64,000 bases of DNA, taken from a virus (Duplodnaviria; Heunggongvirae; Uroviricota; Caudoviricetes). The stretch is taken from the IMG/VR virus record IMGVR_UViG_2718218360_000002; one strand, given 5' to 3'. Below, piece after piece: positions 27,001 to 30,000 of this stretch (position 1 is its first letter; each line of letters begins with the position of its first letter). A program made the position numbers.

Positions 27001-30000
27001 ATGTGTGGACGCATAAACCGGTGCAGTACTATCCCGGGAAACATCCGTGCGAAAAACCGGCAGAAATGCTGCAGCAGATAATCAGTGCGAGCAGTCGTCC
27101 GGGTGACCTGGTTGCAGATTTCTTCATGGGGTCGGGTTCGACAGTCAAAGCCGCGATGGCGCTGGGGCGTCGTGCAACTGGCGTTGAGCTGGAGACTGAA
27201 CGTTTTGAGCAGACGGTCAGGGAAGTACAGGATTTAGTCAGTCAGAACGGATGATATTGCAGAATTAACCGGGTATCAGGTACGCCCCGAAAATTTTAAA
27301 TGTCTCACAATTCAGACGGTTGACAGTTGTCTGGTTTGCGGGGAGTTTGTTAAAAGAAACTGGCATGGTGAATCCCCCTGAGCGGAGGGGCATATCAGCG
27401 CAGGTGTTTCTACTCTATCCTTTCTGTGCGGGTTCAGGTGCTGATACTGAATTCACCGGGAGGCACCCGGCACCATGCAAGAAAAAGAATGTGCATGCAA
27501 ACATGCCCCTCTCCGGAGGGGCATTTTTTTATGGGTAAAAAATGCCCGAATGGGTTCGGGCAATAGCATGAGATACTGATATTGTTGTGTTGTTATCGTG
27601 TGGATTTTAACCAGGGTTTATCAGGCTGCGCAACTGCGTGGCCTTTTTTCATTTCTTGGGCTGTAGTCCCCGTGTGTCATTCAGGCTTCCGGACTACAGC
27701 CCACTCCATATCTGATTTAATACACTATCCCGGCCGGGAGGAATAATGACATTTAAACATTATGATGTTGTCAGGGCGGCGTCGCCGTCAGACCTTGCGG
27801 AAAAGCTGACACACAAACTGAAAGAGGGCTGGCAGCCGTTTGGTAGTCCGGTGGCCATAACCCCTTATACCCTGATGCAGGCGATTACAGCAGAAGGTGA
27901 TGTGGTGGTCAGTGGTGCAACTGAGCCGGATTGGTACTACGTCATCGTACTGGCCGGGCAGTCCAATGCCATGGCTTACGGTGAAGGGCTTCCGCTGCCG
28001 GATTCATACGATGCTCCGGATCCGCGCATTAAACAGCTGGCGCGCCGCAGTACAGTGACGCCGGGTGGGGCTGCCTGCAGATATAACGATATTATTCCGG
28101 CCGACCATTGCCTGCATGATGTGCAGGATATGAGTACGCTGAATCATCCGAAGGCAGACCTGAGCAAAGGGCAGTACGGCTGTGTCGGCCAGGGGTTACA
28201 TATTGCCAAAAAACTGCTCCCGTATATCCCGAATAACGCGGGGATCCTGCTGGTACCATGCTGTCGTGGTGGTTCGGCATTCACCCAGGGCGCGGAGGGG
28301 ACATTCAGTGCGGACACGGGGGCCAGCCAGGATTCGGCGCGCTGGGGTGTGGGTAAACCGTTATATCAGGACCTGATTGCGCGCACCAAAGCTGCATTAC
28401 AGAAGAACCCGAAAAATGTGTTGCTGGCCGTCTGCTGGATGCAGGGTGAGTTTGACATGAGCGCCGCCACCCACGCACAGCAACCTGCGCTGTTTACAGC
28501 CATGCTGAAGCAGTTTCGTGCTGACCTCTCCGTGTTTAACGCGCAGTGCCATGGTGGCAGTGCTGCAGATGTGCCGTGGATTTGTGGTGACACGACGTAT
28601 TACTGGAAAAATACATACGCTACCCAGTACGACACCGTGTACGGCGGGTATAAAAACAGGGAGAGTGAGGGCGTTTATTTTGTGCCCTTCATGACAGACG
28701 GTAACGGCGTCAATACCGCCACTAACGCGCCGGCAGAAGATCCGGATATTCCGGCATCAGGATATTACGGTGCGGCATCGAGAACGAATGGAAACCAGGT
28801 ATCATCAAACCGCCCGACACATTTCAGTTCATGGGCGCGCAGGAGCATTATTCCGGATCGTCTGGCAACCGCTATTCTGAACGCAGCCGGGCGCACCTCA
28901 GCCTTCATCAGTGGTAAGGCACCGGAAATCAAACCCTCGCCCGGCGGCAACACGCCATCGGGTCCGTCTGCAGATACGTCCGTTCGCACAATCTCCCTGC
29001 TGCCGGCAGCCGGAGAGGCTGCTGCGCAGGGCTGGAGCATTAAGGATGGCGGAATTCAGTTGTCAGATGGTGTATTTAAGATCACCAGGCAGAGCAATAA
29101 AACCTGGTCCCTGACGCATCCGGTGGATGACGCAATTACCCTGCTGACACAGGGCGGCAGACTGACCTGTAAGTTCCGCCTGTCAGGCGCACTGACCAAC
29201 AATCAGTTCGGGCTGGGGATTTATCTGTATACGGATGCTCCCGTTCCTGATGGTGTGGCGATGACGGGTACCGGTAATCCGTTCCTGATGTCGTACTTCA
29301 CTCAGACCACTGACGGCAGAGTGAATCTGATGCATCACAGGAAAGCCGGAAACACGAAGCTGGGGGAGTTCGGCGATTACGGTAACGACTGGCAGACGCT
29401 GGAGCTGGTGTTCACCGCCGGCAGTGCCACGGTTACTCCGAAACTGAATGGAGTGGCTGGCCCGGCATTCCAGGTCATAAAAGACAGTCTGACACTGGGA
29501 CTGAATGCGCTGACGCTGACGGATGTTACAAAAAATGCAGCGTATGGCGTTGAGATAGAAAGTCTGGTGCTGGAGATAAATGCACCGGCAGCATAATAAA
29601 AAAAGAGCCAGCGACTGACCTGAAAAAGAAGACGCTGGCTAAAAGGCCTTATATGTTTGTAGATACTTATTTTTCACAGACAGCAATGATGCCTGTCAAT
29701 ATATTATCAATATGCGGATTGTTTCAGTTACAGATGCTTTATTAAGGAAAAAAACAGCCAGCACTGACTTTCGGTGGGGAGGTGCTGGCTCAAAAGGATA
29801 GTTGGATTTCACATGATACTTATGCCTGGCGGTATATTTTCTGACAGACAGTGACGGATGTTGTCAAGATATTGTGTCATTTATAACCTGAACCAGGGGG
29901 GCCGGAATGTTATCTGGCATTTTTAGCAGAGCCTGAATGCCATAATCACGGCTCCCGGAGTTGGCCGTCAGTGGGTGACACTGGCGGCTTTTTGTTTTCC

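Follow-up and report, generated by a model that had tools for sequence, protein, structure and literature searches.

A tandem pair of probable PasA-type small RNA genes between nanS-p and the holin gene of an Escherichia coli O157:H7 prophage

What occupies the 447 nucleotides (nt) between the sialate O-acetylesterase gene nanS-p and the gene of holin S in a lambdoid prophage of Escherichia coli O157:H7? The stretch analysed (the window; 64,000 nt of IMG/VR record IMGVR_UViG_2718218360_000002) has two successive hairpin-bearing units at this place, and the intergenic sequence is 100% identical in strains FRIK2455 and Z1836. A first-pass annotation had offered two explanations, that a terminator region is duplicated here or that two small structured RNAs precede the lysis cassette. 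We conclude, with a probability of roughly 0.8, that the units are two tandem, diverged copies of one minus-strand small RNA (sRNA) gene, convergent with the phage late operon. Both earlier explanations hold, as the hairpins are intrinsic minus-strand terminators that end RNAs detected in relatives (PMC8550237, PMC4104026). The RNAs are antisense to the late operon and are not leaders of the lysis cassette. The RNAs themselves are already known, having been described in 2014 (PMC4104026) and 2021 (PMC8550237) and surveyed in 2026 (bioRxiv 10.64898/2026.05.13.724894). Our additions are modest: the units are tandem paralogues with a promoter block in common, unit 1 is probably independent, and the related sRNA PasC looks chimeric.

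Published experiments on near-identical homologues supply the minus-strand transcripts, their sizes and their dependence on or binding to Hfq; the present analysis supplies identity, paralogy and conservation pattern. We infer the use of the promoters, the transcription of unit 1 on its own and whatever physiological role there may be. The features of the locus are as follows.

29597-30043: intergenic region from nanS-p to the holin gene, 447 nt
29598-29747, minus strand: unit 1, diverged tandem copy of unit 2, 150 nt
29748-29897, minus strand: unit 2, complete pasA-type sRNA gene (promoter block, body, terminator), 150 nt, aligning with the PasA locus of E2348/69 PP2
29606-29640, minus strand: terminator hairpin 1, 8-bp core stem with inner pairs, then C and U7 (29604-29598)
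29756-29790, minus strand: terminator hairpin 2, 9-bp stem and 17-nt loop, then G and U7 (29754-29748)
29670-29699, minus strand: putative promoter block of unit 1 by pattern match, -35 TTGACA at 29699..29694, -10-like GAAAAA at 29675..29670
29838-29867, minus strand: putative promoter block of unit 2 by pattern match, -35 TTGACA at 29867..29862, -10-like CAGAAA at 29843..29838
29748-29832, minus strand: predicted mature PasA-type sRNA, 85 nt, homologue of E2348/69 PasA
29598-29832, minus strand: read-through (long) PasA isoform, 235 nt, 221/235 identical (94%) to the published 236-nt form
29598-29663, minus strand: predicted unit 1 sRNA, about 66 nt, coinciding with the EcOnc52 peak and with the 3' end of the long PasA isoform
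29564-29574, plus strand: site CTGGTGCTGGA towards the nanS-p 3' end, with complementarity to the PasA seed over 8 bp (CCAGCACC)

Structure of the units and identity of unit 2

The arms of hairpin 1 are located at 29606-29616 and 29630-29640, with the core GCCAGCG at 29607-29613 and CGCTGGC at 29633-29639, and its terminator ends one base past the nanS-p stop codon. The arms of hairpin 2 (29756-29764 and 29782-29790, AGCCAGCAC and GTGCTGGCT) are 100% complementary. Both hairpins had been placed a few bases away, at ~29610-29645 and ~29760-29795, and their folds beat those of shuffled sequences (z = -3.45, with 0/200 shuffles as good, and z = -3.50, with 1/200). The T runs noted on the minus strand are present as U7 after both hairpins. 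On the plus strand, A7 precedes each hairpin (29598-29604 and 29748-29754) and AAAAGG follows it, so that a GC-rich stem-loop followed by a U-tract, the signature of an intrinsic terminator, exists for both hairpins on the minus strand only. As the plus-strand hairpins have no U-tract, late transcription should pass them unhindered. Since it allowed loops of at most 8 nt, a simple terminator scan picked up no more than an inner sub-hairpin in unit 1; its plus-strand candidates were confined to 29901 and 29963. The curators of the phage 434 record (OL657226.1) annotated two minus-strand terminators and one plus-strand terminator at equivalent positions. When the terminator stems of unit 1, PasA, PasA-2, PasC and a fourth type (GCCAGTAC/GTACTGGC) are compared, 91.5% of cells are paired, against 25-46% in slid-partner controls, and three of the nine stem pairs change on both sides (covariation).

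Read on the minus strand, each unit begins AT-rich and goes on to TTGACA, a spacer of 18 nt whose last bases are TGT, a hexamer rich in A, a body that varies, CCUUUU, the stem AGCCAGC(G/A) and U7. Each would accordingly be read as a sigma-70-type promoter block followed by a short unstructured body, a U-rich stretch (CCUUUU) and a GC-rich intrinsic terminator, which is the usual build of an Hfq-dependent base-pairing sRNA. Both blocks are putative promoters. The start predicted for unit 2 (~29831-29832, 7 nt past the hexamer) is the annotated 5' end of PasA and PasC (CTGCC), and that predicted for unit 1 (~29663) differs by 2 nt from the position where the EcOnc52 peak has its 5' boundary (29665). 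The promoter pattern has two exact matches in each of the 51 two-unit loci collected, one in one-unit loci and none in the unrelated zero-unit loci.

Inside the promoter spacers we observed a short inverted repeat on the minus strand, GACAG-N9-CTGTC in unit 1 (within 29670-29699) and GACA-N11-TGTC in unit 2 (within 29838-29867), which could be a binding site for a common regulator. The level of PasA is reported to be higher in virulence-activating conditions. Comparison of the promoter block with the LexA and Fur box consensus, by eye only, gave no convincing match, and no known box was recognised.

Unit 2 corresponds to PasA, which was annotated in enteropathogenic E. coli (EPEC) E2348/69 (NC_011601) on the minus strand from 743499 to 743415, with a major form of 85 nt and a minor form of 236 nt ending at 743264 (Pearl Mizrahi et al. 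2021; PMC8550237 Table S6). The RNA is located between E2348C_0688 (esterase) and E2348C_0689 (holin) in the direction > < >; the same paper reports its northern sizes and Hfq-dependent stability and remarks 'Homologues identified in EHEC (EcOnc51/EcOnc52)', that is, in enterohaemorrhagic E. coli. The E2348/69 locus aligns with the window throughout, both units included. Unit 2 is identical to PasA at 74/85 positions, the 3' part agreeing at 46/47 and the 5' part at 28/38, and against a profile of PasA/PasC-type units it reaches E = 1.1e-51. The northern probe for PasA, GCCAGCACTGACTTTCGGTGGAGAG, is the plus strand of hairpin 2, with one mismatch in the window, and the long PasA isoform extends to the U-tract of hairpin 1. 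The predicted fold of the unit 2 RNA has an open 5' region of about 40 nt and then the terminator. The PasA seed, GCCAGCACC (5'-GCCAGCACCU), lies in the 5' arm of the terminator (PMC8550237, fig. S5 text); unit 2 keeps this seed, the 3' stem-loop and the poly-U, and its esterase/holin position and antisense orientation also match the PasA family. Unit 2 thus has every feature of the family that can be checked by sequence, and the Hfq-dependent RNA of about 85 nt is known from the E2348/69 homologue and from crosslinking in strain Sakai. In a recent survey (Zhu, Shabalina and Storz; bioRxiv 10.64898/2026.05.13.724894), the same esterase-holin synteny is given for pasA, and a variant named PasA-2 is described as having a conserved 3' end and divergent first 40 nt and as prevalent in sequence type 11 (ST11). 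Compared with this description in words, unit 2 of the window is probably a PasA-2 variant.

The relation between the units was examined by alignment and by profile. They are collinear except for a 15-nt indel, and the spacers share the motifs GATACTTAT (at 29662 and 29815), TTTTC.ACAGACAG (29671 and 29836) and TGTCAA.ATATT (29694 and 29862). The local alignment score of the whole units is 43, against 16.1 +/- 2.4 in dinucleotide shuffles (0/5000 as high); with the terminators removed it is 29, against 16.3 +/- 2.6 (5/5000 as high). With a unit-2-type profile, unit 1 is the sole other match in the 64-kb window (E = 3.9e-4); searching the other way round gives E = 2.9e-3. The shared 30-nt block TTGACA-N10-CTGTCTGT-SARAAA occurs exactly twice in the window, where 0.01 occurrences are expected. 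The resemblance of the AT-rich spacers, pointed out in the first-pass annotation, is therefore real and beyond chance in both the shuffle and the profile tests. Of the extent then proposed (29597-29975), the part covered by the two units stands, and the last 80 nt (29897-29975) belong to an unrelated plus-strand terminator element. The homology of unit 1 to PasA/PasC is weak, lies mainly in the promoter block and the terminator flanks, and is enough to place it in the family. By these comparisons unit 1 is a diverged tandem paralogue of PasA/PasC, weakly but significantly similar.

Standing of unit 1 and rival explanations

Evidence for RNAs ending at both hairpins comes from two pathotypes. 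Crosslinking and analysis of cDNA (CRAC) with Hfq in EHEC Sakai gave the peaks EcOnc51 (in prophage Sp12) and EcOnc52 (Sp4), both flagged with a predicted Rho-independent terminator (Tree et al. 2014; PMC4104026 Table S2). EcOnc52 (Sakai 1181998-1182075, minus strand) is hairpin 1 with its U-run (64/64 aligned bases and a 2-nt indel in the loop), EcOnc51 is hairpin 2 with its U-run, the 3' part of unit 2 (55/57 aligned bases), and both are antisense to nanS-p in Sakai. Because of these identities and that of PasA, both hairpins are terminators of minus-strand Hfq-bound RNAs in two pathotypes. In E2348/69, chimeras obtained by ligating and sequencing interacting RNAs (RIL-seq, by which PasA was detected too), for example with escD, fall at 743267-743294 (minus strand), the terminator of unit 1; as we interpret the table, the unit 1 region is always the second RNA in its chimeras.

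The predicted unit 1 RNA folds into an open 5' region of 23 nt and the terminator (z = -3.7), and the part best conserved between the units is the promoter block. About 100 plasmid records have unit 1 but not unit 2. In the copy on pO26_EH031_2 (L003 2913-3151) the break coincides exactly with the boundary of the unit, nothing in the promoter block differs, and the sole change in the stem keeps the pairing as G-U. In Sakai Sp4 the insertion sequence IS629 lies 22 nt upstream of the -35 element; unit 1 is otherwise kept, promoter and terminator included. Judged on these features, together with the RIL-seq chimeras and the exact promoter matches in the 51 two-unit loci, unit 1 is probably a gene in its own right, specifying an sRNA of about 66 nt; its independent transcription we regard as close to an even call.

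Under the preferred reading, unit 2 would give the 85-nt PasA-type sRNA, probably PasA-2, and a fraction of its transcripts would read through the large-loop terminator and stop at hairpin 1, producing the form of about 235 nt. Unit 1 most likely would also fire from its own promoter and yield an sRNA of about 66 nt, matching the EcOnc52 peak. Both RNAs would bind Hfq and pair in trans with mRNAs, and the PasA seed GCCAGCACC matches the site at the end of nanS-p. A more ambitious version makes unit 1 a third member of PasA/PasC, an Hfq-dependent RNA of about 66 nt whose own seed lies in the open 5' region CUACAAACAUAUAAGGCC, gives most PasA prophages a tandem pair resembling OmrA/OmrB, and treats PasC as a crossover product, to which cis gating of the esterase or lysis genes might add; this combination is tentative, at a little short of even odds.

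Several observations weigh against these interpretations. The RNA evidence comes from other strains and prophage copies (E2348/69, Sakai) rather than from the window's own. The -10 elements are weak (GAAAAA and CAGAAA, the last position lacking T), and two unit 1 copies (L073 and L088) have damaged stems. The RNA of unit 1 could derive wholly from PasA read-through and processing, and the authors of PMC8550237 treat the unit 1 region as a minor PasA isoform. CRAC reads from multicopy prophage sequence are not assignable to a single copy and the Sp4 variant of unit 1 is the commonest among the loci collected, so EcOnc52 at Sp4 behind IS629 is no proof of independent transcription. Unit 1 also varies little (at least 93% identity), which makes conservation of its promoter block weak evidence. 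In the preprint (bioRxiv 10.64898/2026.05.13.724894), pasA copies are stated to lie at least 22 kb apart and not to stem from tandem duplication, and the mature 5' end of PasA is said to arise perhaps by cleavage of a longer transcript. The physiological function of PasA is not established in the literature.

Part of this evidence can be assembled into another explanation, by which unit 1 is a decayed duplicate whose hairpin serves only as a back-up terminator of PasA read-through, EcOnc52 and the RIL-seq fragments being the 3' end or a processed fragment of the 236-nt isoform. Table S6 of PMC8550237, where the unit 1 region appears as that minor form, fits this explanation, as do the 17-nt loop of hairpin 2, which is compatible with leaky termination, the stem-breaking changes in the two unit 1 copies and the weak -10 element; EcOnc51 and EcOnc52 are, moreover, crosslink peaks with no northern blot in PMC4104026. 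A back-up terminator would not readily account for a promoter block, rather than the terminator alone, being best conserved between the units, nor for a predicted start 2 nt from the EcOnc52 boundary, and the survival of unit 1 without unit 2 on plasmids, with promoter block and stem pairing kept in pO26_EH031_2, also speaks for a gene. We consider it a credible minority alternative. An action mainly in cis, by pairing with the 3' untranslated region (UTR) of nanS-p or the late transcript, or through convergent transcription, either of which would cause cleavage or interference and tune nanS-p or the lysis genes, is compatible with trans action and looks unlikely as the principal role. The geometry invites it: the orientation is > < >, and the sRNAs have complete complementarity both to the 3' UTR of nanS-p and to the part of the late transcript immediately upstream of the holin gene. 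The nanS-p 3' UTR must span both units because the plus-strand terminator occurs only at 29963-29998. The target-motif table of PMC8550237 contains fragments at the 3' ends of both E2348/69 nanS-p genes, with a site equivalent to 29564-29574 in each, and a plus-strand RIL-seq fragment (743494-743512) falls inside the PasA region. The site at 29564-29574, the only match within nanS-p of the window, falls outside the overlap, however, so pairing at this site would be of the trans type, and PasA has many Hfq-mediated partners, virulence genes among them, many of which are unlinked.

A role of the hairpins on the plus strand, as terminators or insulators before the lysis cassette or as stabilising 3' stem-loops of the nanS-p mRNA, is very improbable. 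Hairpin 1 does begin 10 nt past the nanS-p stop codon and both hairpins fold on that strand too, but they are followed by AAAAGG instead of a T-run, the plus-strand scan candidates at 29901 and 29963 lie elsewhere, and the RNAs seen experimentally are on the minus strand. That the units encode small proteins, possibly in a type I toxin-antitoxin pair, is hardly credible. Open reading frames (ORFs) of 30 aa (29653-29745, plus strand; MFVDTYFSQTAMMPVNILSICGLFQLQMLY) and 38 aa (29812-29696, minus strand) exist, the former with AAGG 6 nt upstream of its ATG. No small ORF is common to both units; the frame equivalent to the 30-aa ORF has 10 codons in unit 2, and among unit 1 variants residues are altered (D to E, L to P) or the frame is shifted; the 30-codon ORF is therefore probably non-coding. 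Rfam gave no toxin-antitoxin RNA at the units.

Distribution, evolution and neighbouring elements

We collected 72 nanS-p-to-holin spacers from IMG/VR prophages, reference loci and the window itself. They fall into three architectures: two units in 447 nt (51 loci), one unit in 290-301 nt (12) and an unrelated leader in 161 nt (9). The comparison across related prophages that had been proposed as a check shows both units in 51 of the 72 spacers; unit 1 is present in all 51 two-unit loci. One-unit loci are of two kinds. In the PasC type, a junction and stem like those of unit 1 (TAATAAAAAAAGCCAGCG...CGCTGGCTAAAA) are joined to a body and promoter like those of unit 2. The other (L029) has a unit-2 terminator with the compensatory stem change GCCAGTAC/GTACTGGC directly after the stop codon. 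Single-unit loci include L006 (E2348/69 PP5, 2332-2420), L018, L023, L029 and L043. On this comparison, PasC looks like a product of fusion or unequal crossover between tandem units, or else like the single-copy ancestor. The pattern suggests repeated unequal crossover between tandem units at different registers; alternatively, the pair may have arisen by duplication of a single unit.

A search of 5426 complete E. coli genomes located unit 1 at 2302 places (676 genomes) and unit-2-type sequence at 2852 places (691 genomes). The carriers are almost all attaching-effacing or Shiga-toxin lineages. None of the matches listed in complete E. coli genomes overlaps an annotated RefSeq feature, and because RefSeq shows nothing at these matches the units will be rediscovered repeatedly from raw sequence or standard annotation. 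The same tandem pair is present in E. albertii; a scan of species-representative genomes with the promoter block gave only E. albertii and three chance matches, and nothing similar in other species. The plasmid copies of unit 1 come with the final ~87 nt of nanS-p, and the plasmids measure roughly 80-95 kb; the copy in pO26_EH031_2 adjoins the uilS lactonase gene and insertion sequences. We considered them as a mobile module and rejected this, as they are prophage remnants flanked by insertion sequences.

The view of the locus as a tandem pair changes the counting of copy number and variants, and it suggests an origin of PasC by fusion of two units. The design of deletion mutants is affected, since removing PasA alone leaves unit 1. 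If unit 1 is independent and the tandem pair general, the published statement that pasA did not undergo tandem duplication would be contradicted.

The other features around the locus are listed below.

26196-27254, plus strand: DNA methylase gene
27334-27534, plus strand: STnc100 (Rfam)
27537-27598, minus strand: AgvB (Rfam)
27746-29596, plus strand: nanS-p, encoding a SASA-family sialate O-acetylesterase of 616 aa, upstream neighbour of the units
30044-30250, plus strand: gene of class II holin S, downstream neighbour, with the endolysin and spanin genes next

Gene direction across esterase, sRNAs and holin is > < >, the sRNAs being convergent with the late operon (nanS-p to S-R-Rz), and the 3' UTR of nanS-p and the late transcript are antisense to both sRNAs. 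STnc100 is the late-promoter leader, related to PasD and StxS, and antisense AgvB follows directly. Rfam also places a sok antitoxin RNA and DicF in the window (22233-22407 and 15751-15802). The Q region has no tRNA genes after it, and the interval from STnc100 to nanS-p contains no stx (Shiga toxin) genes.

Next to unit 2 lies a separate plus-strand element, a strongly structured stretch (29897-29957) followed by an 11-bp intrinsic terminator (29963-29989) with a T-run to 29998. The fold of the whole element (29897-29998) has z = -4.4, and 45 nt separate its end from the holin ATG. The element is conserved wherever there are one or two units and corresponds to the terminator annotation in phage 434. 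This terminator probably stops transcription not modified by Q (for example from nanS-p or stx promoters) ahead of the lysis genes, and it sets the nanS-p 3' UTR, antisense to both sRNAs, at about 400 nt. The nanS-p-to-holin spacer attracts insertion sequences: besides IS629 in Sakai Sp4, ISEc20 on pOkiPb01683_2 cuts unit 1 just past its -10 element, and ISEc13 in E2348/69 PP5 follows the plus-strand terminator.

Comparison with known systems

Searches against known RNA families returned nothing at the units. With Rfam 15 at a permissive threshold, region 29400-30200 gave only two chance snoRNA matches (E >= 5) and no Pas family; at gathering score the whole window gave only STnc100, AgvB, sok and DicF, all away from the units. 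A search for tRNA and transfer-messenger RNA (tmRNA) found none, and a full-text literature search for the hairpin sequences retrieved only unrelated primers. Two other assignments were tried and dropped. PasA is not the plus-strand structured element at 29897-29998, which is ruled out by the published strand and probe sequence (PMC8550237). Unit 1 is not HnrS (EcOnc10-12; 66 nt, up to nine copies), as HnrS in Sakai is located about 3.4 kb past the stop of nanS-p and the window does not contain its sequence.

The closest relative is PasA of E2348/69, which shares with unit 2 the esterase-holin position, antisense orientation, terminator, seed and U-tract, as well as the near-identical 3' 47 nt; the difference lies in the 5' 38 nt, of which only 28 agree. 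EcOnc51 and EcOnc52 (PMC4104026) correspond to the 3' parts of unit 2 and unit 1 and are likewise antisense to nanS-p and terminator-flagged, although they are crosslink peaks in other prophages (Sp12, Sp4) whose full-length RNAs are undefined. PasC of E2348/69, a member of the same family at the same position, has a stem (GCCAGCG/CGCTGGC) and a junction to the nanS-p stop of unit 1 type, with a promoter and body of unit 2 type; it differs in residing in single-unit loci with an intergenic region of about 292 nt as against 447 nt here. AgvB, STnc100/PasD/StxS and HnrS are, like the units, short Hfq-associated sRNAs of lambdoid late regions, but their sequences are unrelated; AgvB and STnc100 lie 2 kb upstream of the units in the window.

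Adjacent paralogous genes of Hfq-type sRNAs with shared promoter and terminator regions and diverged bodies are familiar from OmrA/OmrB in E. coli and PrrF1/PrrF2 in Pseudomonas. In contrast to these, the pair in the window is located in a phage late region antisense to mRNA, and its downstream copy, whose own expression we infer, doubles as a second terminator for the upstream one.

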